From Actinomycetota bacterium (GTDB taxonomy: Bacteria; Actinomycetota; JAHEXW01): a DNA stretch of 64,000 nucleotides. The DNA is taken from assembly GCA_041658625.1 (NCBI GenBank), contig JBAZZW010000002.1, positions 538,851-602,850 of the forward strand. Direction: 5' to 3'. The position numbers and the translations under genes were made by a program. Positions 4,611 to 62,453 of this stretch are shown here, piece after piece; within the stretch, counting starts at the first letter, position 1, and the number at the start of each line of letters is the position of its first letter. The notes below the pieces were generated by a model that saw only the letters and a program-made list of their open reading frames with translations, had not been told where the DNA came from and did no database searches.

Positions 4611-4634
4611 GGACACATTCCCGGGAATGTGTCC
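4611..4634. promoter_or_regulatory. 24-bp perfect palindrome GGACACATTCCCGGGAATGTGTCC (copy 1), between arsR-like gene and TadE-like gene
   Basis: Read directly; identical to copy 2 at 5041..5064; candidate operator or RNA hairpin. Confidence 0.5.
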
Positions 4635-4639
4635 GTCGA

Positions 4640-5038
4640 CTAATGGAGATATTTCCTAAAGAGACTGCTAAGGTTGCCTAGCATCACGTCCGTGACCACC
4701 CGACTGTCTTTGTCTTCTATTTCTCTGTTAAAGGAGTGTATTACAAGAAATAGCAGCATTTCATTCCTTAACGACAATCTGACCTTGCGAACTCTATAAT
4801 AGATAAACGATCCCCTGTTTCTATAGGTAACAAATCCGGCTTTGTTCAGGTCGCTTAGATTCCGCGAAACTGTTTTAACAGGCCACCCGCCCCGAATGCT
4901 GATTTCACCAACAGTTAGCGGTCCTGTATTGTTGAGCATTTCAAGTATCTCCAAACGTTTTCTGAAGCCAAGGACTTTGAAAATATTCGCCAAATCATCA
5001 AGTTCGTTCTTCTTTGTCATTTTCTCCTTTGCAAACAT
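4640..5038 (-). CDS. ArsR/SmtB-family transcriptional regulator
   Basis: 132 aa; winged-HTH LEILEMLNNTGPLTVGEISIRGGWPVKTVSRNLSDLNKAGFV; alternative start at ATG 5020 with AGGAG RBS. Confidence 0.8.
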   Translation of the reverse strand: MFAKEKMTKKNELDDLANIFKVLGFRKRLEILEMLNNTGPLTVGEISIRGGWPVKTVSRNLSDLNKAGFVTYRNRGSFIYYRVRKVRLSLRNEMLLFLVIHSFNREIEDKDSRVVTDVMLGNLSSLFRKYLH

Positions 5039-5040
5039 CA

Positions 5041-5064
5041 GGACACATTCCCGGGAATGTGTCC
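5041..5064. promoter_or_regulatory. 24-bp perfect palindrome GGACACATTCCCGGGAATGTGTCC (copy 2), immediately upstream of arsR-like gene
   Basis: Read directly; exact duplicate of 4611..4634. Confidence 0.5.
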
Positions 5065-5070
5065 TTACTT

Positions 5071-6200: not shown

Positions 6201-8945
6201 CTACTTGGGCGGTTTAGCTGCTTTCAGTCGTTGTACGGCCCACTCGTTTGAAAGATCAAGCGATTGGTTTAGCTCGAACGAGGTGTCAGCTCGTTTCTTC
6301 TCAGCATTTCGAACTTCTTTGACGGAATCGTAGAACTGTTTGCCAATCAGACGTTGTTTCTCAATTGGAATTACCGGTACTGGTATTGCTCCAAGATCAT
6401 CCCATTCAACGCGGTGTCTACTAATACCTGTGGATTGAGATAAAAGGCGGGCTCGGACTTCGGGGCTTCGAAGAAATCCCCATAAAAACCAAACATCGAA
6501 TCTTGCGTCCTTAAGTCGCATAATAGTAAACTCCGACGAGGCAATTACACCCGAGAGGTCAGCAGGAATCACGGCAATGGAACCGAGGGCAGCAGCAATG
6601 TTGCTTGCTACAATATCATTTTCTTTTGGGTTTTGAACTTTACTATATGTAAGTTCTTCTCCGAGCGCCTTATCGCCTTCCTCGGGGATTCCGTCATATC
6701 GAACACGCAGTAATGTGTTTAGTTTGCTAGGCTCGTTTTTCGGATTGAAGCCCTCATTTTCAATCTTGTCGACTATTGTGTGTAGGGGAACAACATTAAG
6801 GCCATCGGCACGCCATTTGTCAGAAATGTCATTTGGGCGGGGGAGACACGACTTAACATCAAGACGATCTCCAATAAGGCCGCTCCTGACCCGCCAAGGG
6901 CCCTTTATCCCCTGCATAAAAAGATTAAAAGCCTCAAAAAGGTCCCTAGTTTCGTCTTCAGCTGCGGTACGAGCTTCAGCTGCTTTACTAGGCCGTGTCT
7001 TCATGGGCACATCATCAAGGCCTACGTAGCGACATTCATACATAAAGGCATCCGGCTGACTTTGCTTTTTCGCGTCCCGCCGAATGAGGTATAGGACCGA
7101 TGTCTTTGCACGAGCTCCAACACGTTGAAATGCGTCCCCAGGGATACTGATTACGGCACGAACTATAAAGCGATCCCTTATAAAATCTCGTGCGAAACGA
7201 TTATTTGAGGAACTCAAGATTGAGTCGTCAATTACAGTTACGAGTTTACCGCCTGGCTTAAGAATGTCTGCATATCGTTCTAAGAACATAATGCTCGACT
7301 TTAATGATGGGCGTTGTCTATTTGTTTTCCCAAAGCCAAAGGTCCTTAGAGCGTACTGGTTGAGAATTAAAGCCTCGTCTGGCAGCGTCTCTGAGTAATC
7401 CATCGAGAATGGTGGATTTGTTAGAACGATATCGAAACCTCGTCTGCTTCCATTTGATATTTCGAAAATAAGTTTCTGAAGCTCTTCGAGCTCAAAACGC
7501 GATTGCTGATCATCTCCGACACCATGAGACACTGTCTTATCAAGGCTGTCCGCCGCATATATCCGGCTACCGCCGTCTCCATGGAGATACATGTTGATTC
7601 GTGAAATCTTTGCTAATGGTGGTTCTTTACCTGCATCAATGCCAAATATGGAATCGTTGGCGACCCTTTCTAACAAGGCGTTTTGTTCGCTGTCGCTCAG
7701 AGAAGTGTTAGATCGAATTTGATTCCGCATGTCGGTGAGGGCTTCAATAAGGAAGCCTCCTGAACCACAACAGGCATCAATTACATGGTCAATATGGTCT
7801 TTTGATGCAATTGGGGCAGCGAGTTGTTCCATCATTTTTACAATAGACCTGGGTGTAAAGTATTGCCCCAAGGCTTGTCCCCGCATGGTGGCACTTAAGA
7901 ACGTCTCAAACAAACGACCGTTAAGGTCCTCATCAATGCTGTACAAATCAAGTGATTCTAGTTTCGAGACAACTTGTCTGATTGTTCCTATCTGGAGTTC
8001 AATATGGTCATTTGGCCCAAATATCGGTTTCTTCTTTCCTCGGGCAACGTCCTCTCTAAGAACTTCATTAAGCCTGGCAAAAAGGGTCTCATCAACTGGA
8101 TTCTTTACCCCCTGTGACTGCAGAGCATCAATCCAATGCGTTGAGAAGATAACATTGTCCCGTGGTATTGGTTTCTCGTCTCGTAGTAAAGGCCCCATTA
8201 TGGGGTCATCGTGTAGTTTTCGATCCTCCCAAAGCTTTACGAACATTATTTTTACGAACTCAAAGAAAGCAGGTTGAGGATTCATCTTCTCAGCTTTCCA
8301 TATAAGTCTATGACAGCTGTTAAAAACCCTTTTGATCTCCTCAACAGAAGGCTTTTTCATTAGAAAGCGTGGCTTTTGTATCGAAGGCTTCAGGCCTTGC
8401 CTAATAGTAGTAGCCTGAAGTAACGAGCGTACCGAAAAGAAGCTTATGTTGTCATCAGCAAAGTCGGAAAATTCCAGGCTGATTATAGGCTTGCTCTCAT
8501 CCCATTTATAAAGGTCAAATGCGAGACCATTAGTTATTACGTAGTATGAACAGGGGTTTTGATTGCTAAACTCTTGATTAAGCCCTAACGCATATCCAGC
8601 ACCTTGAAAAGCCCACTTGTCGATATCTTCCCCTGGTGATTTTGCATCGATTAGCCACATAGGCTTCTCGTTACAGTAGATGACGTAATCTGGCCTATAG
8701 CCTTCTTTTTTTCTGCCTCTGGCTACAACAATCTCTTTAAGAGATACCTTTGGCCGGATTTCAGAGTCTTTGTAGCCGAGATCCTTTAGCAAACGATTTA
8801 TAAAGAATGTCTCGACTGAAGACTCATCAACTAAAACCGCTTTATCACAGTATTTGTTTGACTTCGCGTCCTTGCCAGCGCGACTCAAAGAGTCTAGGAG
8901 CGTAGGGCGAAGTAGGTCACTTTGCGGGGTTTTTGACTGTTTCAT
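6201..8945 (-). CDS. single-chain restriction-modification enzyme: PD-(D/E)xK nuclease + gamma-class N6-adenine methyltransferase + HsdS-like target-recognition domain (Type IIG-like)
   Basis: 914 aa; N-terminal RPDYVIYCNE...WLIDAKSPGE nuclease core; MTase motif I VIDACCGSGGFL then motif IV NPPF; C-terminal IPVPVIPIEKQRLI typical of HsdS TRD ends. Confidence 0.75.
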   Translation of the reverse strand: MKQSKTPQSDLLRPTLLDSLSRAGKDAKSNKYCDKAVLVDESSVETFFINRLLKDLGYKDSEIRPKVSLKEIVVARGRKKEGYRPDYVIYCNEKPMWLIDAKSPGEDIDKWAFQGAGYALGLNQEFSNQNPCSYYVITNGLAFDLYKWDESKPIISLEFSDFADDNISFFSVRSLLQATTIRQGLKPSIQKPRFLMKKPSVEEIKRVFNSCHRLIWKAEKMNPQPAFFEFVKIMFVKLWEDRKLHDDPIMGPLLRDEKPIPRDNVIFSTHWIDALQSQGVKNPVDETLFARLNEVLREDVARGKKKPIFGPNDHIELQIGTIRQVVSKLESLDLYSIDEDLNGRLFETFLSATMRGQALGQYFTPRSIVKMMEQLAAPIASKDHIDHVIDACCGSGGFLIEALTDMRNQIRSNTSLSDSEQNALLERVANDSIFGIDAGKEPPLAKISRINMYLHGDGGSRIYAADSLDKTVSHGVGDDQQSRFELEELQKLIFEISNGSRRGFDIVLTNPPFSMDYSETLPDEALILNQYALRTFGFGKTNRQRPSLKSSIMFLERYADILKPGGKLVTVIDDSILSSSNNRFARDFIRDRFIVRAVISIPGDAFQRVGARAKTSVLYLIRRDAKKQSQPDAFMYECRYVGLDDVPMKTRPSKAAEARTAAEDETRDLFEAFNLFMQGIKGPWRVRSGLIGDRLDVKSCLPRPNDISDKWRADGLNVVPLHTIVDKIENEGFNPKNEPSKLNTLLRVRYDGIPEEGDKALGEELTYSKVQNPKENDIVASNIAAALGSIAVIPADLSGVIASSEFTIMRLKDARFDVWFLWGFLRSPEVRARLLSQSTGISRHRVEWDDLGAIPVPVIPIEKQRLIGKQFYDSVKEVRNAEKKRADTSFELNQSLDLSNEWAVQRLKAAKPPK

Positions 8946-17368: not shown

Positions 17369-17815
17369 TTAATTAAGTCTAGCGGCGTATTCCTCGAGGG
17401 TCATTATGTCGGTGAGACCGCGGACGACCCTGGCGAGCTTTTTATCCGCTGTTATAAGTCGGAGTCCTTCAAGGTCGGCTTGGGCGACGAAGTAGGCGTC
17501 ATAGACTGTTATGCCCGCCTGCATCGCTAACTCGATCGCTACGTGCAAAACATTTGAGTCAAATGCTATAGTTGGCAGGCCTTCGTCTTGAAGAGCTTGA
17601 ATCGCGCGATTAATCTCTCTTGGCTTGTCAATACTCGACCATCGCAAACCATTCGCGATTTCATAGAAAGAGAGCTCGGTAATAGCCGTTAGGATTCGGC
17701 CTTTGTTGATGGCCGCTTTAAGCCATAGGGCCTGATAAGAGTCTTCTTCCTCAAGGAACCATTTTATTAGTATGCTTGAATCCAAGAGAATAGGTGTGCT
17801 GCTTTTATTTGCCAA
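17369..17815 (-). CDS. vapC: PIN-domain toxin VapC-like
   Basis: 148 aa; N-terminal ILLDSSILI strand with conserved Asp, later acidic residues (DAYF, ITAD); overlaps upstream antitoxin by 11 nt. Confidence 0.7.
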   Translation of the reverse strand: MANKSSTPILLDSSILIKWFLEEEDSYQALWLKAAINKGRILTAITELSFYEIANGLRWSSIDKPREINRAIQALQDEGLPTIAFDSNVLHVAIELAMQAGITVYDAYFVAQADLEGLRLITADKKLARVVRGLTDIMTLEEYAARLN

Positions 17816-18068
17816 TAGGACCTCTCATCGCGCGGATAATCTCTGTGGAATCACCATGCCAATGGCCTTTTGTCGACTCTCGTATTTCATCCATTATCTT
17901 GCCTGCCTGTTTTCGGCGGGCTTTCAGTTCCTTTTCGTTCTTCCTCTCTTCTATCCCGGCGCGAATATACTCACGGATAATCTCGCTCCGCGATCTGGAT
18001 TCTTCTTTTGCCGTTTGATCGAGCTCATTAATATATGCGTCGGGCATGGTCAGAATAATCCTGGACAT
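17805..18068 (-). CDS. vapB: ribbon-helix-helix (CopG-like) antitoxin VapB-like
   Basis: 87 aa; N-terminal RIILTMPDAYINELDQTAKEESRSRSEIIREYI is a classic RHH fold signature. Confidence 0.65.
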   Translation of the reverse strand: MSRIILTMPDAYINELDQTAKEESRSRSEIIREYIRAGIEERKNEKELKARRKQAGKIMDEIRESTKGHWHGDSTEIIRAMRGPIGK

Positions 18069-18124
18069 TGTTACCTCCTCTTGAATGATATCTTTCTGGT
18101 ATCAATTGTATATCTCTTGTTTGT

Positions 18125-18146
18125 ATCAGGCAATACATTGCCTGAT
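18125..18146. promoter_or_regulatory. 10-2-10 inverted repeat ATCAGGCAAT-AC-ATTGCCTGAT about 57 nt upstream of vapB-like start; candidate TA operator
   Basis: Read directly; a second palindrome CCTCTCCCC-GGA-GGGGAGAGG lies at 18183..18203. Confidence 0.3.
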
Positions 18147-18471
18147 TATGATCAGCAAATATATTTGGCCCCTCACCTCAATCCTCTCCCCGGAGGGGAG
18201 AGGCAGTAACAAAACTCGAGCACCTATTCTGCGAGTCAAGACTGAGGGTGGGCGGGAGCCTCGAACATGGGTTTCCTTGAAGTTTTTCGCGCCGCCAGCC
18301 GCCGATTAATATAAAGGATCGAGCATGCGGACATTCCACGACTCGAGCGGAGAGCATTGTTTGCTCGCCGTGGCGACCTGAAACACGGGGTCAGGCCCTA
18401 TCTCATAAGAAGAAAGGGCCTGACCCCATAGCACTAACGATGGTAGGCCGCGAGCGGCATGCTCGTCTATT

Positions 18472-21074: not shown

Positions 21075-22261
21075 ATCAACAGTATAGCAATCAGACTGGT
21101 TGACGTAACCAACAAATAGACCGAGGTGTAGCCGAAGGCGTCAATAATAGCGCCTCCCAACAAAGAGGCCGGCACTTGCGAGAGGGTGATCGAGATTGTG
21201 TCCAGGCCGTAGAACTCCCCTTCCCGGCCTTTGGGAACGAGCTCGGCGAGCAGCGCGAACGGTTCGTTGAAAAGAGGCGCGGCTCCGACGACGACAAAGA
21301 GCGCGGCCACGTAAAACATGGTCAGGTCGCGGAAGAAAAAGGCGATGACGCTGCCGATGGTAAGCGAGACCAAGCCGACCGTGACGATCTGGCGATGCCC
21401 CCACCTGTCGCCCAGCGCCCCAGCCGCGACGATGGCCCCGATTAAGAGAACGGCTCCGATAATGACGCCCGGGCCGAGCCGAAACAGTTCGGATACCTCG
21501 ACGCCGTATAGTTCTTTCAACATGATGGTCGCGAACGGCATCAGCGAGCCCAGGCCCAACCACCAGAAGAACTGCGCCGCGAAGAACAGAAGGATCTTCT
21601 TTTGCGATACCAGATCACGCATATACCGGCGAAAGTTTTTGAAGATTGAAATCTTGTCCTGGTCGGGAAGCTCCCCGCCCCTGTCTTCCCTAACCGATAT
21701 GAATGTGATGGCGGCCGTGAAGACGATAACGAAAGCCGTCAGGTAAAACAGCCAGGCCGGATTCTTAGCCCAGAACCAGCCGCCGAAACCAAGCACCAAG
21801 GCGGCTCCGAGCAGGCGCAGAAGTCCGGTGAACGTCGAATAAGCGCCGCGCCGGCCTTCCCCCGACATCTCCGGAATAAGGGCGTAGAATGGTATCTGGT
21901 AGGCGACCGAGAAGGTGAAAAACAGGCTTACCAGGAGCAGAAACACCCAGTAGTTAAGGGTGTGCGGCATGGCCGCGACGCATAGCGCCGCCAGAATAGA
22001 ACCTGCCAGTATATACGGCCGGCGCCGGCCCCACGGCGTCCAGGTGTTATCGGACAGCGTGCCCGCCAGCGGGGATAGGATGACGGAGATAACGTGCGAC
22101 AGGCTGGCCGCCACCCCGACCATAAAGTTGGACACGTTGATAAAGTCGTGCAGGTATAAGGTCGCGAAACCGAAGATAAGCGTTGTCGACATGGTGATAC
22201 CGACAACAGCGGAATTATGCCAGAGAAAACTAATAAGACGCGATGACTGTTTTTCCGCCAT
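21053..22261 (-). CDS. MFS transporter
   Basis: 402 aa; 12-TM topology with MFS-like loop motifs. Confidence 0.8.
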   Translation of the reverse strand: MAEKQSSRLISFLWHNSAVVGITMSTTLIFGFATLYLHDFINVSNFMVGVAASLSHVISVILSPLAGTLSDNTWTPWGRRRPYILAGSILAALCVAAMPHTLNYWVFLLLVSLFFTFSVAYQIPFYALIPEMSGEGRRGAYSTFTGLLRLLGAALVLGFGGWFWAKNPAWLFYLTAFVIVFTAAITFISVREDRGGELPDQDKISIFKNFRRYMRDLVSQKKILLFFAAQFFWWLGLGSLMPFATIMLKELYGVEVSELFRLGPGVIIGAVLLIGAIVAAGALGDRWGHRQIVTVGLVSLTIGSVIAFFFRDLTMFYVAALFVVVGAAPLFNEPFALLAELVPKGREGEFYGLDTISITLSQVPASLLGGAIIDAFGYTSVYLLVTSTSLIAILLMWLKSRV

Positions 22262-22934
22262 ACACTTGTTGGCCTTCCGTAATCTTGATTTCGATGTCGG
22301 TTTTGTAAATGATCAGGTCGACCTGGCTGCCGCGGTCTATAAATCCGACTTTGTCGCCGGTTTTAAGGTTCTGCCCCTCTTCCACGTAGCAGGTGATCTT
22401 GTTGACGAATTTGTCCGCTATCTCGATGACGGCGTAGTCGAAACCCGGGCCTTCGACCAGCAGACTGTTCCGCTCGTTCACCAGATGAAACTTGGCGCTG
22501 AAGTTGTCTATGGCCTGCCTTAGGTACGTAAACTTGATGTATTCCCACAAGTCGACCATGGGCACATTGGCCTTGGCTTTGGTGTAAGCGATTCGTTTTA
22601 TCTTGCCCGGCGCCGGCGCGTAGTTAAAGTGCACGTCGAAAGGCGACATGTAGATCCCGACGATCCAGCCGTCCGCGTGCTCCGGAAGATCAAGGTCGGT
22701 CAATTCGGTCAGCTTGATGTCTCGGCCAAGCTTGCTAGAAACAACCTTGCCGCCGGTGAACTTCTTGACATAGACGACCTGTCCGTCGGCGGGAGAGATG
22801 AAGACGTCGCCGGTGGCGTCGGCCGTCCGCGGCGGGTCGCGGTAGAACCAGACGAAGCGGTTCAGGAGGTATAGCGTCGTCAAAACGACTATAACCAGTA
22901 ATAAGACTATGAGGACAATATACAGTGGTTTCAT
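22230..22934 (-). CDS. psd: phosphatidylserine decarboxylase-family protein
   Basis: 234 aa; N-terminal TM anchor, PSD-like core, C-terminal region ending ...GGKTVIASY. Confidence 0.75.
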   Translation of the reverse strand: MKPLYIVLIVLLLVIVVLTTLYLLNRFVWFYRDPPRTADATGDVFISPADGQVVYVKKFTGGKVVSSKLGRDIKLTELTDLDLPEHADGWIVGIYMSPFDVHFNYAPAPGKIKRIAYTKAKANVPMVDLWEYIKFTYLRQAIDNFSAKFHLVNERNSLLVEGPGFDYAVIEIADKFVNKITCYVEEGQNLKTGDKVGFIDRGSQVDLIIYKTDIEIKITEGQQVYGGKTVIASY

Positions 22935-22941
22935 CTGCTAA

Positions 22942-22984
22942 CTTCTCGATTCCCTCGCTGCCACTCGCTCACTCGAAGAATATT
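22942..22984 (-). repeat. 43-bp conserved intergenic element (copy 1), 8 nt upstream of psd start
   Basis: CTTCTCGATTCCCTCGCTGCCACTCGCTCACTCGAAGAATATT; 41/43 identical to 24670..24712; shares AATATTCTTCGAG(T/C)GAGCG with 59915..59933. Confidence 0.5.
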
Positions 22985-23000
22985 CTTCCCTTATTCCCTG

Positions 23001-23981
23001 TTACTTTTCTTTAAGATACTTCCAGATAACGTACGGAAGTTTCGGAACGTAATACCCCGCCAACCCTGCCATCGATTTTAGCGCGGCGGCTTTGTTCTCC
23101 GGGATCGGACCTTGCTCGAAAACGCCGGTCCGGTAGCCGCTGTCCAGCGCCGTATAGGTCGCTTGGTACCCGAACTTTTCGTTAAAAGCTTTGACCTCGT
23201 CAGACGCCGTCCGTTTTATCAAATCTTCCGGGACATCGGCGATTGAGGATAACTCATTATACAGGGGAATAAGTTCTTCGACATAGCCTTTCGCGGCGAC
23301 GCCGGCGCGCACCTTGTTGTACCATTGCCGATCGAACGGCAAGCGCCTGTCCAGCTTGGCGATTGCCTCGACAGCGCGGGCCAGGACGGCGACGCGGTTT
23401 AAGTCCCAGACAGGATCTAGCACCCTTAGCTCGACCGTGCCGAGACGTTTGGCGATGATAATGTCCTGGAAGCGGTCCCGCGGATCTTCGCGCAGCTTGC
23501 CGATGGCGTAACTGTGGGCCATTCTGAAGGACTGCCCCATATATGTGCCACCCGCGTAAGGCGCGTTAATTGTCAGCAAGGTTAAAACGGGTAAGAAATA
23601 AGCCAGGTTGGCATAGGTAAGCTCTATGTCGGGGACCCCTCCGACGTGCAGCTGCAGCGCGCAGACGTTCGTCGGCGTACTTAGGTTGATCAAATGTCCG
23701 ATCGGCGCGATCAAGCCTTCCGAAACGCCGGCCAGTTCCCGCCGGCGCGCGGCCAGATCGTCCAGCAAAGAGGCGGCGTCGCCATGAACTTGCGTCGCTA
23801 CCTCCACCCCGCTCATCAACCCGTATTTTACGTCGGGACCCCGGCTGAAATTAGAGGCCGTCAGGCGGTAGTGCCGCCCCGGGTCACTCCACATAAGTTT
23901 GGACAGGTAATACAGGGATTTGAGAGAGGGCCTCTCCGGCTCGACAACGAAGACCTCTTCTTCCAGGCCGAAGGTAGCCAT
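23001..23981 (-). CDS. GCS2-family carboxylate-amine ligase-like protein (tentative)
   Basis: Start taken at ATG 23981 (MATFGLEEEVFVVEP), 1 nt after scpB stop; the track's 389-aa TTG-initiated form adds a Pro/Arg-rich extension overlapping scpB. LEEEVF and LQLHVGG motifs. Confidence 0.5.
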   Translation of the reverse strand: MATFGLEEEVFVVEPERPSLKSLYYLSKLMWSDPGRHYRLTASNFSRGPDVKYGLMSGVEVATQVHGDAASLLDDLAARRRELAGVSEGLIAPIGHLINLSTPTNVCALQLHVGGVPDIELTYANLAYFLPVLTLLTINAPYAGGTYMGQSFRMAHSYAIGKLREDPRDRFQDIIIAKRLGTVELRVLDPVWDLNRVAVLARAVEAIAKLDRRLPFDRQWYNKVRAGVAAKGYVEELIPLYNELSSIADVPEDLIKRTASDEVKAFNEKFGYQATYTALDSGYRTGVFEQGPIPENKAAALKSMAGLAGYYVPKLPYVIWKYLKEK

Positions 23982-23982
23982 C

Positions 23983-24654
23983 TTATTCCGCAGGCTTGTC
24001 CGCCGGAGCTTCAGCGGCGGCGGGCGTTTCGGCGGGCCTGCCCTCCGAAGCTTCAGCGGCGGAGGGTTCTTCCGTAGCGGCTTCCGCGGTTTCGCCGGCG
24101 AGCTTGAACCTGATCTTGCGCTGCGTCTCCTCGTCCGGTTCAAAACCTTCCAGTTCCGGCAGTTCGTCAAGGTTCTCCAACCCGAAGCTTTCTAAGAAAC
24201 GCTCGGTTGTGCCGTAGAGTGTCGGCCGGCCGATGACGTCGTCCTTGCCGATCTCTTTAACCAAGCCTTTGGCCAGCAGATTGGCCAGAACCGAATCGAC
24301 GCTGACGCCACGAATCGCCGCGATTTCAGCGCGGGTGATCGGTTGCCTATAGGCGATAATGGCCAGGGTTTCCAGACCGGCTTGGGTAAGCCTCCTGAAA
24401 TCTGATGAGAGAACCAGCTTCTCCACGTAGACGCGGTTCTTGGGATCGGTATAGAGCCGGTATCCGCCGGCGATCGCTTTCAATCTTATGCCCCGGCCGC
24501 CTTTGGCCATGTCTTCCTTAAGGTCGGCCAGCGCCTGCTTAACCTCATCTTCGTTTCTGCCGGTAAAGTCGGCCAGCTTCTTTAGAGGCAAAGGTTCATC
24601 GGTAACAAATAGTAGCGACTCTATAATTGATTTCAATTGTTGGTCATTGCCCAT
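23983..24654 (-). CDS. scpB: segregation and condensation protein B
   Basis: 223 aa; winged-helix ScpB core with Ala/Glu/Pro-rich acidic C-terminal tail. Confidence 0.85.
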   Translation of the reverse strand: MGNDQQLKSIIESLLFVTDEPLPLKKLADFTGRNEDEVKQALADLKEDMAKGGRGIRLKAIAGGYRLYTDPKNRVYVEKLVLSSDFRRLTQAGLETLAIIAYRQPITRAEIAAIRGVSVDSVLANLLAKGLVKEIGKDDVIGRPTLYGTTERFLESFGLENLDELPELEGFEPDEETQRKIRFKLAGETAEAATEEPSAAEASEGRPAETPAAAEAPADKPAE

Positions 24655-24669
24655 TTCTGATATCCTCAG

Positions 24670-24712
24670 CTTCTCGATTCCCTCGCTGACGCTCGCTCAC
24701 TCGAAGAATATT
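24670..24712 (-). repeat. 43-bp conserved intergenic element (copy 2), 16 nt upstream of scpB start
   Basis: CTTCTCGATTCCCTCGCTGACGCTCGCTCACTCGAAGAATATT; near-identical to 22942..22984. Confidence 0.5.
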
Positions 24713-24742
24713 TACTAACTACTAACCACTAACTGCTAACAG

Positions 24743-24784
24743 CTCTTGGCTCTTGGCTCTTGGCTCTTGGCTCTTGGCTCTTGG
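24743..24784. repeat. heptanucleotide tandem repeat (CTCTTGG)x6, preceded by TAAC-rich reiterations (24712..24740)
   Basis: Read directly in the 135-bp scpA-scpB spacer. Confidence 0.7.
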
Positions 24785-24789
24785 CTATT

Positions 24790-25569
24790 CTAGTCCTCAC
24801 TCCAGTGGTTTGAGTTAATCGCGGCCTCATCAACAAGCTTAACTTCGATGTCGCCGAACGTCTTGGCCTGACTGACGCCGATGACCCCGCGTTTGAAAAG
24901 CTCGAGGATGGTCAGAAAGACTACGATCTTCTCGATCCTGGACTCGGCTTTCCGGCAAAGGTAGCGGAAAGAACACGTTGGCTTCTTCTTAAGCTCTTTT
25001 AATAGGTCGACAGCCTTCTCGCCGACCGACAAGCTGTACAAAGCGATGTGGGAGGTATCAATCTCGAACGTCGGCTTAATCTGCAGAAGCTCCTGCGCCA
25101 TGATGGACAAATCGGTCAACCTTATGCCCTGCAGAAAATCGGGCGCCAGGTCGGCGAAATCCTCTTCCGGCGCCGCCACCCTCATGAAGTGATAGCTCTG
25201 CTCTTCGGCCCGCCCTGACAGTTCCGCCGACATCGCCTGGAAAGTCATGTATTCGATCAAGTGGTCTATCAGGCTTTCCCGCGACTCCATTTCCCCGCGG
25301 ATCTGTTCGATCTGGGCGGCTTCGTCGACCGGCAGCAGCGCGAAAGACTTAAGCTCCAGGAGCGTCGCCGCGATGACCAGGAACTCGCTGGTCAAATCCA
25401 GGTTAAGCTCCTTCATTTTGGTGACGTATTTCAGATAGTCGTCGGTGATCTTGGCGATGGGGACTTCGTAGATATCGACCTCTTGTTTGAGAATCAGGTC
25501 GAGCAGAAGGTCAAAAGGACCCGCGAAAACATCAAGTTTGATTTCGTAGGCCAGGGTGTCCGTGCTCAC
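24790..25569 (-). CDS. scpA: segregation and condensation protein A
   Basis: 259 aa; ScpA-like sequence; start overlaps trpS stop by 4 nt. Confidence 0.85.
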   Translation of the reverse strand: MSTDTLAYEIKLDVFAGPFDLLLDLILKQEVDIYEVPIAKITDDYLKYVTKMKELNLDLTSEFLVIAATLLELKSFALLPVDEAAQIEQIRGEMESRESLIDHLIEYMTFQAMSAELSGRAEEQSYHFMRVAAPEEDFADLAPDFLQGIRLTDLSIMAQELLQIKPTFEIDTSHIALYSLSVGEKAVDLLKELKKKPTCSFRYLCRKAESRIEKIVVFLTILELFKRGVIGVSQAKTFGDIEVKLVDEAAINSNHWSED

Positions 25570-26552
25570 TCTACATTCATCCGCCCGCGAACGTCGTGCA
25601 GTGTTTTCTGGGCTTCCGGCCGGGCTTTCGCCAAACCGGCCGCCAGGACTTCATCGATGAATCCTTTCTTGGCGAGGAGCTCCCGGCGTTTCTCGCGGAA
25701 GCTTGCCAGCTGATTGATGATGTTTTCCGCCAGCTTGTCTTTGCAGACGGTGCAGCCGATACTGCCCGCCCGGCACTGTTTGGCGACTTCCTTGACGTCT
25801 CCGGGCGAGAACACGCCATGGCCGGCGAACACGCTGCACACTTCGGGATGGCCCGGATCGGTCGCCCTGACGCGCGCCGGGTCGGTAATCATCGAGCGGA
25901 CCTTTTTGGTGATGACCTCCGGTTCGTCGCTTAAGTAGATGGCGTTGTCGTAGCTCTTGCTCATCTTCCTTCCGTCGAGGCCGATAACCTTGGGCGTCGC
26001 GGACAGAACGGCTTGCGGTTCGGTCAGGTTGGCTTTATACAGATGGTTGAAACGTCGGGCAATCTCCCTGGCCAGCTCGAGGTGCGGCAGTTGATCCTCG
26101 CCGACCGGAACCACGTTCGCGTGCATGATCAGAATGTCGGCCGCCTGCAAAACCGGATAGCCGAGGAAACCATAGGTAGCCACCAGCCTCTCGCCCAACT
26201 CCCTTAACTGATCTTTATAGGTGGTGTTGCGTTCCAGCCACCCCAGCGGGGTGATCATGGACAGATACAGATGGAACTCGGCGATTTCCGGGACGTCGGA
26301 TTGCCGGTAAATTAAGCATTTATTGGGGTCGAGACCCATGGCAACCCAGTCGATGACCATCTCTTTGGTGTCATCCTGGAGCCTGCTCGTGTCTTTATAC
26401 TTGGTCGTCAGGGCGTGCCAGTCGGCGATGAAGAAAAAGCAGTCGTACTTGTCCTGGGCGTCCAGCATGTTCTTAAGGTTGCCCTCGTAATGGCCGAGAT
26501 GCATCCGTCCTGTCGGACGGTAGCCCGTTAACAGCCGCTTCCTTGTCGTCAT
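25566..26552 (-). CDS. trpS: tryptophan--tRNA ligase
   Basis: 328 aa; class I HIGH-type TGYRPTGRMHLGHY and KMSKS motifs. Confidence 0.9.
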   Translation of the reverse strand: MTTRKRLLTGYRPTGRMHLGHYEGNLKNMLDAQDKYDCFFFIADWHALTTKYKDTSRLQDDTKEMVIDWVAMGLDPNKCLIYRQSDVPEIAEFHLYLSMITPLGWLERNTTYKDQLRELGERLVATYGFLGYPVLQAADILIMHANVVPVGEDQLPHLELAREIARRFNHLYKANLTEPQAVLSATPKVIGLDGRKMSKSYDNAIYLSDEPEVITKKVRSMITDPARVRATDPGHPEVCSVFAGHGVFSPGDVKEVAKQCRAGSIGCTVCKDKLAENIINQLASFREKRRELLAKKGFIDEVLAAGLAKARPEAQKTLHDVRGRMNVE

Positions 26553-30306: not shown

Positions 30307-31512
30307 TTACGCCTCTTGTTCTATATATCTAATATCATTGTAGAAACTATTTCCCGCTACGGGCACCTTGAACCCCATCAGGTCTGAAATCGTCTTGCCG
30401 ACATCTGAGAAACTCGACCTTTCTCCCAAGGATACGCCCCTTCTTATGCCTTTTCCATAGACCATCAAAGGTACATATTCACGCGTATGATCTGTGCCAG
30501 GCATTGTCGGGTCGCAGCCGTGATCTGCGGTTATTATTAAGACGTCTGTTTGTCTCATCTCGCCCAGCAGTGTTTCCAGCATACTATCCGCCTCAAGTAA
30601 ACCTTTAGCATACCCCTCTACGTCGTTGCGGTGGCCCCAGACCGTGTCGAATTCTCCGAGTATGGTGAACACTATCCCCGGCTCCCCCTCCTTCAACAAT
30701 AAACCGGTTTGAGTAAACGCGTCGGCGTTGTTCTTGGTCTTAACCGCCTCAGTGATCCCGCGTCCGCTAAAAACGTCCCAGACCTTGCCGACCGACCACA
30801 CCTTGACGCCTGCTTCCTTGGCATAGTCCAAAACCATTTTCTCCGTCGGGGCCAAACCAAAATCCTTGCGCCTTTCCGTCCTGACGAAATGCCCTTGCTT
30901 GCCCTTAAACGGCCTCGCGATGACCCGGTCGACGCCCAACGATCCTGTTAGAATGTTCCGTGCCGTAAGGCACATCTCATATAACCGCGGCACAGGAACG
31001 ACGTCTTCGTGAGCCGCAATCTGCCAGACGCTGTCGGCCGATGTATAGACGATCGGAGAGCCGGTCGCCATATGCTCCGCGCCCAGTTCTTCGATGATTT
31101 CGGTGCCGCTGGCCGCTTTGTTTCCCAAAACGGGACAACCGATGCGGCGTTCGAACTCGGCCACGACTTCAGCTGGGAATCCGGCCGGAAAAACTGGAAA
31201 CGGATTCTCCGTAACCAAGCCCATCATCTCCCAAAGGCCGACCGTCGTGTCCTTGCCGTGAGACCGTTCGGCCATTTTCCCGAAACAACCCAAAGGTGCC
31301 TTGACCGGCGGGACTCCTTTGATATCGGTGATTAAGCCGAAACCAAGCTTTGTCAGCGCCGGCAGCCTTAAGCCCCCGACGGCCGCGGCTATGTTGGCGA
31401 TCGTATTGGCGCCGACGTCTCCGTATGCCGCCGCGTCGGGCAAAGCGCCGACGCCGAGACTATCGAAAACCAGGATTATTACTCGTGAAATAGGAGTCTT
31501 TTCTTCCCCCAT
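30307..31512 (-). CDS. deoB: phosphopentomutase
   Basis: 401 aa; alkaline-phosphatase-superfamily motifs (VLIITADHGCDPT). Confidence 0.85.
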   Translation of the reverse strand: MGEEKTPISRVIILVFDSLGVGALPDAAAYGDVGANTIANIAAAVGGLRLPALTKLGFGLITDIKGVPPVKAPLGCFGKMAERSHGKDTTVGLWEMMGLVTENPFPVFPAGFPAEVVAEFERRIGCPVLGNKAASGTEIIEELGAEHMATGSPIVYTSADSVWQIAAHEDVVPVPRLYEMCLTARNILTGSLGVDRVIARPFKGKQGHFVRTERRKDFGLAPTEKMVLDYAKEAGVKVWSVGKVWDVFSGRGITEAVKTKNNADAFTQTGLLLKEGEPGIVFTILGEFDTVWGHRNDVEGYAKGLLEADSMLETLLGEMRQTDVLIITADHGCDPTMPGTDHTREYVPLMVYGKGIRRGVSLGERSSFSDVGKTISDLMGFKVPVAGNSFYNDIRYIEQEA

Positions 31513-31516
31513 TCCC

Positions 31517-32482
31517 CTATTCCCTTCTTCCCTTGATGTTTGCTCTTGGATGCGTGCTCATGTATTCCTCTTTCAGGTGATCCTTGGCCACGTGCGTATA
31601 GACCTGCGTCGTCGAGATCGAGGCGTGGCCTAACATCTCCTGAACCGCGCGCAGGTCGGCGCCTCCTTTAAGCAGATGCGTAGCGAAACTGTGTCGCAGC
31701 GTATGTGGCGTCAACTCCGGAAACCCGGCTTTGCCTCCCTGATTCTTTATCGTCTTCCACATTGTCTGGCGGCTCAAGCCGCGCCCTTGTCTGTTCAGAA
31801 ACAGATGATCGTCGCGAGTCTTTCCGACGAGTTTTGGACGGCCGCTCATCAGGTATTTCTGCACCGCTCTGACCGCCGTTCCGCCGACCGGAACCAGACG
31901 TTCTTTTGAACCTTTGCCGAATACCCTCACGAACCCCTCTTCCGAGTCCAGGTCGCCCATTGTCAAGCCCGCCGCCTCGGAAACGCGTAAGCCGCTCGCG
32001 TACATAAGCTCCAGGATGGCCTTATCTCGCCAGCCCCGTGGCGTTTCCGGAAAGTCTCCGTCAAGCAGCTTGGCCACGTCCTCTATTGATAAAACCCTTG
32101 GCAGACGTTGGCTTTTTTTAACGTTAGCCACCGTTGCCATCGGATCGTTTGTTTGATAACCCTCTCTGACCAGGAACTTGAATAAGCCTCGGATAGCCGC
32201 GTGAGCCCTTCCGACCGACGCGGCGTTTAACGGAGTCCCTTCGGCCGTAAACGCTCCGTCGGCTAGTTCCCGGGAGTAGTCCAGGATATGCGTCTTAGTC
32301 ACGTCCGAGAAATCGGTTATGCCCGCGCGCCCCAACCAGCGCATGAAGTTATTCAAATCAAGGGCATACGCTGAGGCCGTATTCTTGGCCAGACCTTTCT
32401 CCACCGAAAGAAAATTAAGGTACTCTCCGGCTTGGGCGGCCAGCTCCGGCGGGACCGGCAATTCTTTATTTCTCCCGTCCAC
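31517..32482 (-). CDS. xerD: site-specific tyrosine recombinase XerD
   Basis: 321 aa; C-terminal HTLRHSFATHLL...LGHASISTTQVYTHV with catalytic Tyr; downstream of NUDIX gene as in Actinobacteria. Confidence 0.85.
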   Translation of the reverse strand: MDGRNKELPVPPELAAQAGEYLNFLSVEKGLAKNTASAYALDLNNFMRWLGRAGITDFSDVTKTHILDYSRELADGAFTAEGTPLNAASVGRAHAAIRGLFKFLVREGYQTNDPMATVANVKKSQRLPRVLSIEDVAKLLDGDFPETPRGWRDKAILELMYASGLRVSEAAGLTMGDLDSEEGFVRVFGKGSKERLVPVGGTAVRAVQKYLMSGRPKLVGKTRDDHLFLNRQGRGLSRQTMWKTIKNQGGKAGFPELTPHTLRHSFATHLLKGGADLRAVQEMLGHASISTTQVYTHVAKDHLKEEYMSTHPRANIKGRRE

Positions 32483-33020: not shown

Positions 33021-33043
33021 AGTATACTCTCCGCTCTCTGGTC

Positions 33044-34132
33044 TTAGCTCTTAGCTCTTTTGATCATCTTCGCAGCGACATATCCCGCGGCGCCGGCCGC
33101 CCGGAAAAATTCAGGCTCTTCTTTAAACCCTCGCTTCATGGTCGATGGCTTCAGGTCGAACATGTCCAACGCTTCCTCGGTATTGTCGCCCGCAATTATG
33201 GCAATCCTGTGTTTAGCGGCCAGCCCCGACATATTCATTTTCATCATGACCGCTTCGTGTTTGGAAGTGTCCATCCTGGGAATCGGGACATCGCAGGTTA
33301 CCAGCGCCGCCAGCCCTAACGCGGCCACCGTTTGATCGCTAAGCCCTTGATGGCGGGCTCTTTTATCGGCAAAGTTGAGGCGCGGAATAGCGATCGGCCG
33401 GCCGCGCATCGCGGCCACCGCATTGACTATCTCGCCCTGTTCTATCCCTGAAAAACCCAAAAAGGTCTCTGTGCCCGCCACGCCGACGCCCATCGTCACA
33501 ATGGCCGCCTCCGCTCCGCCTATCGCCTTGGCGGCCGCCAGGCCGCTGAAGACGTTTACGGCCTCCAGGTCGCCGCCGAAGGCTTGTCCCGTTGTGACCG
33601 TAATATCGATCAGTTCTTTCCGTTTCAGATGCCGAACCTGTTCGCTCAAAGCCATCGGCAGAGCCGCGCGGTCAGTCATTATATAGGCGAGTTTTTTATT
33701 CATGCCCGCCTGTTTCTTGAAAACCGCGGCTGCCGGGCCGAGCTGGCTGTGGAGCGTACCGACTATTACCGGCATACCAAAAAGGTCTTTGAAATCGCGC
33801 AGCTTATCCATGTTGCCGGCGGTTTGTTCCTCAGCCGCCAGGACGTTTAACTGAAGGGGCGAGTAACGGAGCTTCATGATATGCCCGTCGGCAGGCAGGT
33901 CCAGGTCGCCATGCTTTAGGTTCCACACTACGAAATGCCAACCGCCGCTCCCCAGGGCAAGTTCGCCGGCGGTTGTATTTATGATAACCTCGTCGCCGGC
34001 GGCGACCGGTCCGGTAAGATCGGGATAGGCGATAGCTTTAGCCTCCTCGCCTGACGTCTCCACGACAAGTCTGATTATGCCTTTTTCGTCCGCGAGGATA
34101 TTCTTCACTGTCGCTTTGCGGTAAGAGGCCAT
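33044..34132 (-). CDS. conserved hypothetical protein (possibly DUF3866-like)
   Basis: 362 aa; continuous ORF, no motif I can name confidently. Confidence 0.5.
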   Translation of the reverse strand: MASYRKATVKNILADEKGIIRLVVETSGEEAKAIAYPDLTGPVAAGDEVIINTTAGELALGSGGWHFVVWNLKHGDLDLPADGHIMKLRYSPLQLNVLAAEEQTAGNMDKLRDFKDLFGMPVIVGTLHSQLGPAAAVFKKQAGMNKKLAYIMTDRAALPMALSEQVRHLKRKELIDITVTTGQAFGGDLEAVNVFSGLAAAKAIGGAEAAIVTMGVGVAGTETFLGFSGIEQGEIVNAVAAMRGRPIAIPRLNFADKRARHQGLSDQTVAALGLAALVTCDVPIPRMDTSKHEAVMMKMNMSGLAAKHRIAIIAGDNTEEALDMFDLKPSTMKRGFKEEPEFFRAAGAAGYVAAKMIKRAKS

Positions 34133-40413: not shown

Positions 40414-40443
40414 TACTCTCTGCTCTCCGCTCTTTGCTCTCGG

Positions 40444-42881: not shown

Positions 42882-43706
42882 TTACTTCTTCTCCAGCGCC
42901 TCATGCGCCTCATCAACAACCTTTTTGATACGAGTCTCGATTTCCAGCTCTTTGCTCTCCGCTCTCCGCTCTCCGCTACTTTGCTTCATCCAGGCCAAGA
43001 ATTCTATGTTCCCCTCGGCCCCGGTCACGGGCGAATAGGTCAATCCCATAAGCCTTAATCCGCGGCCGTTCAAACGCGAAATCACGTCCGCGAGTATCTC
43101 TTCGTGCCGGGAAGCCTCCCTTATTATACCGCCTTTGCCGACCTTGCCTTTACCGGCTTCGAACTGGGGTTTTATTAGAAAAATAAAATCCGCGTCTGGC
43201 TCGCTTAGACTAACCAAAGCCTCCGCGACCGTAACCAAAGATATGAACGACAGATCGGCCGTTATAACCTCGGCTTTGGCGGGCAGGTCTTCGGATGTAA
43301 GGTGACGGACGTTGGTCCTTTCCAGAACCAGCACGCGCGGGTCTTGCCTGAGCTTCCAGGCCAGCTGGCCGTAACCGACGTCTACGGCCATGACGCTGGC
43401 AGCCCCGCGCTCAAGCAGGACTTCGGTGAAGCCTCCCGTTGAGGCGCCGGCGTCCAGAGCGACGCGTCCCTTAACCTCAAGGTCGAAAACATCCAGCGCC
43501 CTGTTTAGTTTGTCCGCGCCTCGCGACACATACGCGTTATCAGGCTCGACATAAACAGAAGCCCGGTTATCCGTAGCGGCTCCGGGCTTATCGGCGATAT
43601 TGTTTTCGATTCTAACCCGCCCGGCCATGATGGCCCGGCGCGCTTTCTCCCTGCTCTCAAAGATGCCCCGCTCGACCAGCAGGGCATCCAGCCTCATCTT
43701 AGTCAT
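42882..43706 (-). CDS. tlyA: TlyA-family rRNA (cytidine-2'-O)-methyltransferase
   Basis: 274 aa; N-terminal S4 domain (RLDALLVERG) and FtsJ-like MTase domain (LDAGASTGGFT). Confidence 0.85.
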   Translation of the reverse strand: MTKMRLDALLVERGIFESREKARRAIMAGRVRIENNIADKPGAATDNRASVYVEPDNAYVSRGADKLNRALDVFDLEVKGRVALDAGASTGGFTEVLLERGAASVMAVDVGYGQLAWKLRQDPRVLVLERTNVRHLTSEDLPAKAEVITADLSFISLVTVAEALVSLSEPDADFIFLIKPQFEAGKGKVGKGGIIREASRHEEILADVISRLNGRGLRLMGLTYSPVTGAEGNIEFLAWMKQSSGERRAESKELEIETRIKKVVDEAHEALEKK

Positions 43707-59864: not shown

Positions 59865-59988
59865 AAACATACCCTCTCCACTCAAGAACCCCCCCCTTTT
59901 TTTTGAGCTCGCAAAATATTCTTCGAGCGAGCGCTAATTACGAGCTTGCCCTGAGCTAGTCGAAGGGTCGAGAAGGGAGGGCGCCGCT

Positions 59989-61202: not shown

Positions 61203-62453
61203 ATGCAATGCTGTAAAAAGGAGACGCGCGTGCCTAAGCATTATATAGAACGAACAATTGAGCCTTTACTGTTGCGATCGTCGCAAGAGTCACCCGCCAT
61301 CGTTCTGACCGGCCCCAGACAGTCAGGCAAAACGACGCTCCTTAAGCATGTCTTCTCCAAAACTCATCGATATATTTCCCTTGATCTGCCGGACGTCGCA
61401 GCGTCGGCGACCGCCGACCCGCGAGGTTTCCTCGATATAAATCGTCCGCCGGTAATCTTCGACGAGATCCAGTATGTACCCGGACTCCTTCCTTATATAA
61501 AAGAGCTTGTCGACGCAGACAGGCAGAGTATGGGCCGGTTCATTCTTACGGGTTCACAGAACTTGATGTTGCTCAACAGCGTGACCGAGACTCTAGCCGG
61601 GCGAGCCGCACTCTTGCGTCTCCTGCCTCTCTCATATAACGAGGCGCTCGGTCGTCCGTTGACTTCTCTGCCGTGGGAGTCGAAAAAGAGCCATGAGATC
61701 TTGCCTGAGCTTACGCATTCCAACCTCTACCAGAAGCTCATCATCGGGTCTTTTCCGGAACTCGTTGCCACTCCTAAATCCGATCCGACAATCTGGCAAG
61801 GCAGCTATATCCAAACATATCTTGAACGCGACGTGAGAAGCTTAAGACATATCGGCGATTTGTCGACCTTCCAGAACTTCTTGCGGGTCATCGCAGCGCG
61901 CTCGGGTCAGCTGTTCCAGCTTGCTGATGTATCTCGCGACCTGGGTGTCGCTTTCAACACGGCTAAGCAATGGCTCTCCATTCTGGAAGCCACCTACCAG
62001 GTCGTGGTCGTACGACCGTATTTCGAGAACGTAGGTAAACGGCTTGTCAAAACGCCGAAGGTTTACTACCTCGATACAGGGCTCTTGGCATATCTAGCGC
62101 AGATACGCGACGCGGATCAAGCATCTACAGGCCCTTTCAGCGGTGCGTTCTTTGAGACTGCGGTCTTGGCCGAGCTTACCAAGAGCTATGTTCACAGAGG
62201 GAAAGAGGCCCGGATCTTCTTCTGGCGCACAGCGGCCGGCAAAGAAGTCGATTTCGTGATAGAGGTCGGCGGGACATTGATTCCGATTGAGGTCAAAGCA
62301 TCAGCAACCCCGCGCCCAGAGATGACGACTGGCTTGCGTTCATTTATGGAAGACTACAGCCCTAGGGCAAACAAAGGTTATGTCGTACACCCGGGCAATA
62401 TCCGACTACCGCTCGCGCCGGACATCGAAGCCTTACCGTTCGCCCTTCTGTGA
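61203..62453 (+). CDS. AAA+ ATPase with C-terminal DUF4143-like domain
   Basis: 416 aa; Walker A LTGPRQSGKTTLL, Walker B VIFDEIQ, C-terminal region typical of this ATPase family. Confidence 0.7.
   Translation: MQCCKKETRVPKHYIERTIEPLLLRSSQESPAIVLTGPRQSGKTTLLKHVFSKTHRYISLDLPDVAASATADPRGFLDINRPPVIFDEIQYVPGLLPYIKELVDADRQSMGRFILTGSQNLMLLNSVTETLAGRAALLRLLPLSYNEALGRPLTSLPWESKKSHEILPELTHSNLYQKLIIGSFPELVATPKSDPTIWQGSYIQTYLERDVRSLRHIGDLSTFQNFLRVIAARSGQLFQLADVSRDLGVAFNTAKQWLSILEATYQVVVVRPYFENVGKRLVKTPKVYYLDTGLLAYLAQIRDADQASTGPFSGAFFETAVLAELTKSYVHRGKEARIFFWRTAAGKEVDFVIEVGGTLIPIEVKASATPRPEMTTGLRSFMEDYSPRANKGYVVHPGNIRLPLAPDIEALPFALL

Follow-up and report, generated by a model that had tools for sequence, protein, structure and literature searches.

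We analyzed the spacer between scpA and scpB in a 64,000-nt stretch of DNA from an uncultured Actinomycetota bacterium (contig JBAZZW010000002.1, positions 538,851 to 602,850 of the forward strand; this whole stretch is called the window below). The spacer holds two adjoining arrays of 7-nt tandem repeats (heptamers), followed by a 43-nt segment that we call module C. We conclude, with a probability of roughly 60%, that it consists of a slippage-generated pair of heptamer arrays and a duplicated leader module, wedged into a once compact scpA-scpB junction and present in the transcript as a near-neutral, unstructured spacer RNA.

In this reading, an originally compact junction would have received a lineage-specific mosaic insert. 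The 5' two-thirds of the insert, (CCAAGAG)6 and (NNGTTAG)4, would have been made and resized by replication slippage, and the perfect six-unit tract would be a recent expansion of this kind. The 3' third would be the 43-nt leader module shared with the upstream region of psd, followed by a new and independent ribosome-binding site for scpB. The main consequence would be that scpB translation, formerly coupled to that of scpA, now starts independently at GAGGA (-8). Regulatory content, if any, would probably reside in the conserved module C and not in the repeats.

Structure of the scpA-scpB spacer

The features of the spacer and of the genes around it are as follows.

24743..24784, minus strand: array A, six perfect heptamers, CCAAGAG on the mRNA and CTCTTGG on the plus strand (Tandem Repeats Finder and sequence reading)
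24715..24742, minus strand: array B, four degenerate heptamers CTGTTAG CAGTTAG TGGTTAG TAGTTAG, in 7-nt register with array A
24670..24712, minus strand: module C, a 43-nt dispersed segment AATATTCTTCGAGTGAGCGAGCGTCAGCGAGGGAATCGAGAAG (repeat-family grouping, pattern searches and alignment)
24663..24667, minus strand: Shine-Dalgarno sequence GAGGA of scpB, 8 nt before the ATG (sequence reading)
24790..25569, minus strand: scpA, 259 aa, from the list of open reading frames (ORFs); Pfam PF02616 SMC_ScpA, E 2.2e-36
23983..24654, minus strand: scpB, 223 aa; Pfam PF04079 SMC_ScpB, E 7.8e-56
25566..26552, minus strand: trpS, directly upstream of scpA in a long minus-strand gene block
23001..23981, minus strand: conserved gene of 326 aa, next after scpB
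22230..22934, minus strand: psd, after the 326-aa gene

trpS and scpA overlap. The stop codon of scpA (TAG, 24792..24790) is followed by a spacer of 135 nt (24655..24789). In mRNA order its 5' part reads TAG AATAG (CCAAGAG)x6 CTGTTAG CAGTTAG TGGTTAG TAGTTAG, and the 3' part after array B reads TAAATATTCTTCGAGTGAGCGAGCGTCAGCGAGGGAATCGAGAAG CT GAGGA TATCAGAA ATG. A first-pass annotation of this DNA had described six perfect CTCTTGG units at 24743..24784 of the plus strand and a 135-bp gap between the two genes. The units were found again both by Tandem Repeats Finder (24742-24786, period 7, 6.4 copies, 100% matches, score 90) and by reading the sequence, and the gap lies between two genes that Pfam supports. 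The same annotation had placed TAAC-containing reiterations before the CTCTTGG units. These are real and form the second array (24713-24740 by Tandem Repeats Finder, period 7, 4.0 copies, 85% matches), but they do not come first in the transcript: the genes lie on the minus strand, and array A precedes array B.

Array A begins 5 nt past the scpA stop codon; 88 nt separate it from the scpB ribosome-binding site and 93 nt from the start codon. Array B ends 60 nt upstream of the scpB ATG. Frame analysis showed that array B puts UAG or UAA stops in all three frames, and the window spacer contains no small ORF, with no start codon and three closed frames. As had been stated earlier, a change in heptamer copy number would cause no frame shift here; the array is outside any ORF. 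scpB has its own good ribosome-binding site, GAGGA at -8; with the anti-Shine-Dalgarno sequence its -20..-1 region has a duplex energy of -7.3 kcal/mol, while the median of 40 genes is -6.2.

The arrays are not expected by chance. Counting as an array any run in which at least 16 of 21 positions matched at the lag in question, and comparing periods 4-12, we found 4 period-7 arrays in the window, whereas 0.05 were expected from 100 Markov-chain shuffles (made with our own script, which keeps dinucleotide counts through the Markov chain and is not an exact dinucleotide-preserving shuffle). Each of the other periods gave 0 or 1 array, and perfect arrays in the 64 kb were of period 7 only.

An assembly or sequencing artefact as the source of the array has a negligible probability. 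What could be said for it is that one Logan contig (L006, SRR8449812) stops inside array A. Such a break is expected if the assembly k-mer, which we take to be 31 for Logan, is shorter than the 45-nt period-7 tract, and for the same reason we rejected the break as a sign of copy heterogeneity. The whole spacer is identical in three further assemblies from different samples (ENA ERZ27247322, ENA ERZ27249422 and JGI 3300028032; k141 and JGI assemblies), all of which span the array, and this effectively refutes an artefact. Six copies are present in all three. However, the four further assemblies are consensus sequences, in which minor variants would be hidden, with 0 single-nucleotide polymorphisms (SNPs) over 2.1-6.8 kb; as they and the window show no mismatch, they represent one clone, and the comparison of copy number among them is a weak test. 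Loci L158-L161 of the relatives described below likewise sample one clone, with 0 mismatches.

The junction in relatives and sister arrays in the window

The comparative loci, which carry L labels, were obtained mostly by exact-protein look-ups, and a metagenome scan with ScpA added three useful relatives. A scan of genome contigs with ScpB was dominated by a conserved peptide pattern and returned distant phyla only; it served as background. The closest ScpB homologues belong to metagenome-assembled genomes (MAGs) of uncultured 'Actinomycetota bacterium', and the nearest named taxon is Candidatus Aquicultor (49% identity). In a survey of 98 loci from many phyla, for which spacer lengths were estimated, most scpA-scpB spacers measured -35 to +20 nt and about 10 exceeded 40 nt, in agreement with the earlier remark that this spacer usually has a few bases. 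The informative relatives, with the identity of their ScpB to that of the window, are listed here.

L087: ScpB 85%; junction is a TAATG overlap
L147: ScpB 79-81%; junction of 11 nt
L150: ScpB 75-77%; junction of 11 nt
L152: ScpB 82-84%; junction of 25 nt, consisting of AGTGAAG x3
L153: ScpB 92%, the closest; junction of 0 nt, where TTGAGAG CGGAGAG CAGAG supplies the opening codons of scpB
L157: ScpB 90%; junction of 100 nt, with the octamer array (AAGATTGG)x4 and then module C
L158, L162 and L164 (one clade): ScpB 76-79%; junctions of 376-479 nt that begin (NNNNGAG)n (CAGTTAG)n TGGTTAG TCGTTGG

In all, six relatives showed a compact junction (overlap or 0-25 nt), and this indicates that the long spacer is derived and that it is a lineage-specific insertion. 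Across the relatives the junction has no repeat, a few (2-3) heptamers, an array of 8-mers, or heptamers in more than 20 copies. It is a hot spot where differing short tandem repeats come and go.

The long spacers allow the units themselves to be compared. The CAGTTAG and TGGTTAG units of array B also occur in L158, L162 and L164. When every in-register unit ending in (G/T)AG was counted, the window had 10-11 NNNN(G/U)AG units in one register. L158 has 10 units (CCATGAG GCGTGAG CCGAGAG CAAAGAG CAGAGAG CAAAGAG CAGAGAG and three NNGTTAG units). L162 has 11, of which the first five are TTGGTAG GCACGAG GCGTGAG CCATGAG CCGCGAG and the rest CAAAGAG CAGAGAG CCAAGAG CCGAGAG and two NNGTTAG units. These two loci, 90.8% identical in DNA over the stretch from scpA to the gene after scpB, differ by the gain of one heptamer in one sub-array and the loss of one in the other, plus substitutions. 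In L164 there are more than 20 units in each of two copies, plus a 47-nt higher-order duplication. Both among species and among copies, the units thus differ in number and type, as expected from slippage, and this variation supports the view that the scpA-scpB tract acts as a slipped-strand locus over evolutionary time.

Array A is not alone in the window. Three further arrays were found.

33027..33060 (region 33021-33060), minus strand: AAGAGCT AAGAGCT AAGACCA GAGAGCG GAGAG at the DUF3866-to-NUDIX junction (repeat-family grouping)
40414..40443, minus strand: CCGAGAG CAAAGAG CGGAGAG CAGAGAG TA, filling the whole 30-nt spacer from an M23-peptidase gene to a SteA-like gene
42944..42982, minus strand: CGGAGAG x3 and CAAAGAG, in the C-terminal tail of an ORF for a TlyA-like FtsJ methyltransferase; 62 nt separate the array from the stop of this ORF and the start of recN

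On the coding strand these arrays read CTAAGAG, CAGAGAG, CGGAGAG, CCGAGAG and CAAAGAG, and repeat finding (find_repeats) placed all four arrays of the window in one family. The consensus of the family is C-N-R-A-G-A-G, on the coding strand at operon junctions; the arrays at 33, 40 and 42 kb are all at or near junctions of co-directional genes. These sister arrays show that the heptamer phenomenon is genome-wide and is not a switch specific to scpB. The 33-kb array codes for the C-terminal residues of the DUF3866 protein and makes up a 23-nt spacer before the NUDIX hydrolase gene, which starts with TTG. Five relatives have a 4-nt ATGA or GTGA overlap at this junction, and about 35 nt of heptamers are present only in the window. 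This is a second junction in the same genome that was split by a heptamer wedge.

The CGGAGAG arrays at 33, 40 and 42 kb have anti-Shine-Dalgarno energies of -9.1 to -9.2 kcal/mol and provide the downstream genes with their ribosome-binding sites. It is plausible that the family arose by tandem duplication of Shine-Dalgarno segments at gene junctions, and the Shine-Dalgarno strength of these sister arrays fits such an origin. In array A itself, the anti-Shine-Dalgarno energy of (CCAAGAG)6 is -2.1 kcal/mol, against a mean of -2.3 for random coding 12-mers and the median of -6.2 for genuine upstream regions. At this value, array A as a pad of Shine-Dalgarno-like sites was rejected.

CCAAGAG as a special or mobile unit was also rejected: (CCAAGAG)3 occurs in 21 viral contigs, and scrambled heptamers of the same composition are about as frequent (15, 19 and 4 contigs). 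In unrelated background loci from other phyla, 37 heptamer arrays were present in 1.36 Mb. One of these loci, from an Omnitrophota MAG (L012, 3161-14115), is a much denser case, with 12 heptamer arrays in 20 kb, several of them arrays of different units that adjoin each other.

Other short repeats were seen at junctions in the window and in relatives. A purine-rich 8-mer array, AAGGGAAG AAGGGAAT AGGGGAAT GGGGGAAG, lies at 31503-31537 on the minus strand and covers the end of the gene at 31517..32482 (last codons and stop), a gap of 4 nt and the start codon ATG of the gene at 30307..31512; it looks like a tandemly duplicated junction Shine-Dalgarno segment. Other junctions of the scp operon in relatives carry differing purine-rich 9-nt repeats (GGATTATAG, GGGAGTATA and GGAGACGGA; L147 11614-11648, L150 11678-11716, L152 706-753 and 11582-11641, L154 1724-1874). 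In one ScpB homologue (P0017) the N terminus is extended by KEYKDYEDYKEYKE, which shows a three-residue repeat pattern; judging from this protein pattern, the extension may derive from 9-nt repeats. The 180-nt trpS-scpA spacer of L164 contains four 18-nt tandem units (AGAAACAGGNNNGRGGAM) at 8541-8610, followed by inverted CCTGTTTCT motifs.

Known heptamer repeats and possible functions of the arrays

The arrays are a heptanucleotide simple-sequence repeat (SSR) of a known kind. The three properties by which long SSRs are recognized are all present: an excess over chance, whole-unit changes between relatives, and a non-coding site near the upstream co-directional ORF. Heptanucleotide repeats are the most abundant class of long SSR in prokaryotes and have been ascribed to polymerase slippage (Mrazek 2007, as summarized in PMC4679880 and PMC4692102). 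The GGGAATC heptamers of Xanthomonas and the GGGGA(C/T)T heptamers of Nostoc are 89-93% intergenic, lie nearer the 3' end of the upstream ORF, mostly between co-directional ORFs, typically have four units that vary between close relatives, and have housekeeping genes nearby; neither a regulatory role nor an association with surface genes was found for them (Rehm et al. 2015, PMC4692102). The window arrays resemble them in the 7-nt unit, the few copies, the intergenic position near the upstream ORF, the co-directional genes, the variability and the housekeeping neighbors. They differ in that the window units lack G-tracts, follow the consensus CNRAGAG, belong to an uncultured Actinomycetota host and are fused to a duplicated leader module.

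Three further groups of operon repeats are comparable in part. Mycobacterial interspersed repetitive units (MIRU) are reportedly about 46-100 bp long, with small ORFs that keep translational coupling; they share with our arrays the tandem arrangement in actinobacterial operons, the single orientation relative to transcription and the variable number, but the window units are 7 nt long and non-coding. The tandemly repeated heptanucleotides of cyanobacteria (STRR) are said to form a genome-wide family in which different arrays adjoin each other at intergenic or intra-operon sites. Three such heptanucleotides occur in Calothrix PCC 7601, as cited in PMC4692102. Adjoining arrays of different heptamers, the intergenic or intra-operon position and the genome-wide distribution are common to STRR and the window, while the unit sequences and the phylum differ. 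TAACTGA repeats, found in marine Beggiatoaceae, Cyanobacteria and Bacteroidetes, occur as 2-6 copies in intergenic regions of operons, and a post-transcriptional protein-binding role has only been proposed for them (MacGregor 2015, PMC4679880). Like these, the array B heptamers contain TAAC, and their stop-bearing units close all three frames. However, the array B units are TAACTAC, TAACCAC, TAACTGC and TAACAGC, TAAC is on the non-coding strand (GTTAGNN on the mRNA), and no start codon adjoins the array.

Searches for functional signals gave little. Rfam returned no match at the gathering score in the window and none at E<=1 in 22800..25000, and nothing credible in L158. A scan for promoters and terminators found no sigma-70-like promoter and no terminator in the window spacer or inside both L164 cassettes, that is, the copies of the repeat-bearing insert described in the next section. 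The fold of the spacer RNA was no better than that of shuffles (z = +0.38). The units CCAAGAG and GTTAGNN have no G-tract, and a G-quadruplex therefore cannot form.

The first-pass annotation had suggested that changes in heptamer number could alter the spacing between an upstream element and scpB, and that the tract is a possible slipped-strand variation site. The first suggestion was not borne out, as the scan of the spacer had returned neither a sigma-70-like promoter nor a terminator. The second holds in part: unit numbers do differ between species, but the same-family arrays at other junctions speak against a dedicated scpB switch. A contingency or expression-tuning locus, in which slipped-strand gain or loss of heptamers would change scpB expression, would have its analogue in the hmw genes of Haemophilus influenzae. 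Upstream of hmw1A and hmw2A, heptamers lie about 100 bp from the gene, the repeats are of 7, 8 or 9 nt depending on the strain (Dawid et al. 1999, as summarized in PMC2651432), and, by the same summary, arrays of 13-38 units stand inside the mapped promoters of these surface adhesin genes, with copy variation altering expression (PMC2651432). The scp junction shares the 7-nt repeat about 100 bp upstream of the start and the exchange of unit lengths between relatives (7 versus 8 nt). Unit number also differs between relatives, as at hmw, and a perfect run of 42 nt is of the kind most prone to slippage. On the other hand, the scp array has only six perfect units, no promoter was detected, and the array follows a stop codon, 88 nt before the ribosome-binding site. 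The copy number was six in all three spanning assemblies, though this is a weak test on one clone with 0 SNPs. The Xanthomonas and Nostoc heptamers, for which neither a regulatory role nor a surface-gene link is reported, provide a precedent against tuning (PMC4692102), and the same-family arrays stand at unrelated junctions.

The identity of the gene points in the same direction. ScpB is a housekeeping condensin subunit, and scpB is not a typical contingency gene. It is neither a surface nor a restriction-modification gene, and the repeat lies neither in an ORF nor between promoter elements, as would be usual for phase variation. Taken together, tuning of scpB by the array is decidedly unlikely.

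A different possibility is that the RNA is read by a protein. An oligomeric protein might recognize an XAG triplet every 7 nt, in the geometry of HutP, and control the translation of scpB or the fate of its mRNA. HutP reads XAG motifs spaced by 4 nt and contacts their A and G specifically (PMC2425495), and the window likewise offers XAG triplets with four-nt spacers in single-stranded RNA. The test for a HutP site was positive for at least three XAG motifs with 4-nt spacers (10-11 units in register), arrays A and B share their register, and the AG at unit positions 6-7 is near-invariant while positions 1, 2 and 4 vary. However, the B. subtilis hut leader has two sites of three XAG motifs around a terminator stem; two such clusters were not found in the window, where the 10-11 or more units are contiguous and no terminator-like site lies in or beside the spacer. 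The unit count is not kept: each L164 copy has more than 20 units, compared with 10-11 in the window, L158 and L162. L157 has 8-mers and L152 has AGTGAAG at the equivalent site, and a flanking terminator hairpin is missing. A shared register is also expected if array B arose from a mutated array A unit, and no HutP or TRAP gene is known for the lineage, of whose genome 64 kb were available. We regard such a platform at scpB as very unlikely.

A TRAP-like site was considered separately, as trpS adjoins scpA and 11 (G/U)AG triplets are present. TRAP sites comprise 9-11 (G/U)AG triplets that are 2-3 nt apart. This candidate was rejected, since the spacers are 4 nt and both L164 copies have more than 20 units; the latter count removes the coincidence in triplet number. 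A wider form of the protein-binding proposal would have the heptamers act genome-wide as single-stranded RNA platforms at operon junctions, with AG kept at 7-nt intervals and read by an oligomeric HutP-like XAG-binding protein. If this were true, the platforms would form a post-transcriptional control layer over genes such as scpB, recN, steA and that of a NUDIX hydrolase, but we consider it highly improbable.

Module C, the psd leader and the significance of the spacer

The 3' part of the spacer has a different character from the arrays. Module C is a dispersed segment with two other copies in the window.

22942..22984, minus strand: second copy of module C, 95% identical to 24670-24712 and 1.7 kb from it, within the 66-nt spacer that precedes psd
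59914..59935, plus strand: third copy, partial and limited to the 5' end of the module (AAATATTCTTCGAGCGAGCGCT); about 50 nt further downstream lies TCGAGAAG

The psd copy is preceded by GGGAATAA GGGAAG and forms a perfect 14-nt palindrome, GAAGAATATTCTTC. In the alignment of 6 copies from 4 genomes, the 5' motif AATATTCTTCGA of the module is invariant. Between the window and L157, module C together with the ribosome-binding region has 81% identity, compared with 45-59% at the 4-fold sites of the flanking genes. No match to module C was found among viral contigs. RNAalifold predicted 5 pairs for the six copies, one of them covarying, at -0.8 kcal/mol, which is too weak for a hairpin claim.

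In the clade of L158, the insert is a longer composite of arrays and a non-coding core of about 260 nt (L158 926-1301; L162 9622-10000; L164 9522-10000 and 11631-12037). This core is about 98% identical between species, against 81% at flanking 4-fold sites. Within it lie three ATTCTTC motifs, a perfect palindrome of 26 nt (GGTTCCATGGTCTAGACCATGGAACC) and a hairpin that occurs in two sequence versions. The heptamer arrays are the hypervariable 5' fringe of this composite. In L164 the entire composite is present at both the scpB and the psd junctions. A mini-ORF just upstream of scpB (L158 1239-1289) reads MKTGFAILVILVIIVI* in L158 and L162 and is a shorter MKTG... in L164; 9-nt repeats make up part of it. 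From the second cassette copy in L164, this mini-ORF can be recognized as a truncated copy of the first psd codons. The composite at both L164 junctions and the truncated psd codons together indicate that the scpA-scpB insert shares its origin with the psd leader through segmental duplication.

These data bear on the possibility that the spacer is a cis-regulatory cassette. In that case, a leader with an operator, promoter or RNA element for psd would have been copied before scpB, the arrays would be its variable fringe, and the leader (module C in the window, the core of about 260 nt in the L158 clade) would co-regulate psd and scpB. The conservation of module C and of the L158-clade core above the 4-fold sites (81% versus 45-59%, and about 98% versus 81%), the invariant AATATTCTTCGA in 6 copies, the palindrome GAAGAATATTCTTC in the psd copy and the presence at both L164 junctions agree with such a role. 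Nevertheless, a sigma-70-like promoter was found at neither locus, Rfam gave no match, and the single covarying pair among the five from RNAalifold adds little. Gene conversion between copies could inflate the conservation, and the repeats themselves would gain no role. We consider a regulatory cassette unlikely.

The proposal of a near-neutral wedge also has points against it. The non-repeat parts are conserved well above synonymous sites, so that junk is not a fitting description of the entire composite, and the arrays might have a part in its function. The units are not random either. Of the 17 distinct unit types in the family, 16 have AG at positions 6-7; all carry G or T at position 5 and a purine at position 3, whereas variation is unrestricted at positions 1, 2 and 4. 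This pattern hints at a constraint that pure neutral slippage would not predict, although shared descent of the units or purine loading of the coding strand could also yield it. Every array was seen in one co-directional block, in which orientation relative to transcription and orientation relative to replication are inseparable. Finally, both the neutrality of the arrays and the loss of translational coupling are inferred from sequence.

Several other elements of the window were recorded. A palindrome, GGACACATTCCCGGGAATGTGTCC, occurs at 4608-4634 and 5041-5067 and flanks an ArsR-family helix-turn-helix gene (4640..5038); the pair are probably operators. Direct repeats of about 150 nt (59986-60136 and 62539-62687; 77-93% identity) flank a DUF4143/AAA_14 ATPase gene (61203..62453) and contain GGGTGATTAGCTCAGGGGGAGAGCGCTTCCCTGACACGGAA, which resembles the 5' half of a tRNA. 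ARAGORN found no tRNA in these repeats, which may be attachment-site remnants. A GC-rich hairpin element, GGGGTCAGGCCC...GGGCCTGACCCC, is present twice, at 18387-18432 and 60856-60901, with 87% identity. A PIN-domain gene (17369-17815) is preceded by a 656-nt spacer (17816-18471) with an unlisted small ORF, MSRIILTMPDAYINELDQ...; this would encode a putative ribbon-helix-helix antitoxin and would form a toxin-antitoxin pair with the PIN gene. The same spacer contains the element CCGGGGAGAGGATTGAGGTGAGGGG (at about 18.1 kb), a near-identical copy of which opens the three Logan contigs L154-L156 (positions 1-30), 63 nt upstream of scpB in a relative at 89% identity. This distribution suggests that CCGGGGAGAGGATTGAGGTGAGGGG is a dispersed repeat that breaks the L154-L156 assemblies.

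As an isolated feature, the scpA-scpB spacer matters little: intergenic heptamer repeats are an already described and functionally unexplained class, found here before a housekeeping gene. The comparative series is of modest value, as one and the same junction can be followed from gene overlap to more than 20 units with a higher-order duplication. It provides a clean natural record of how tandem repeats and duplicated leaders pry translationally coupled genes apart. The wedge could be neutral, could tune the stoichiometry of ScpA and ScpB, or could serve as a protein-binding RNA.

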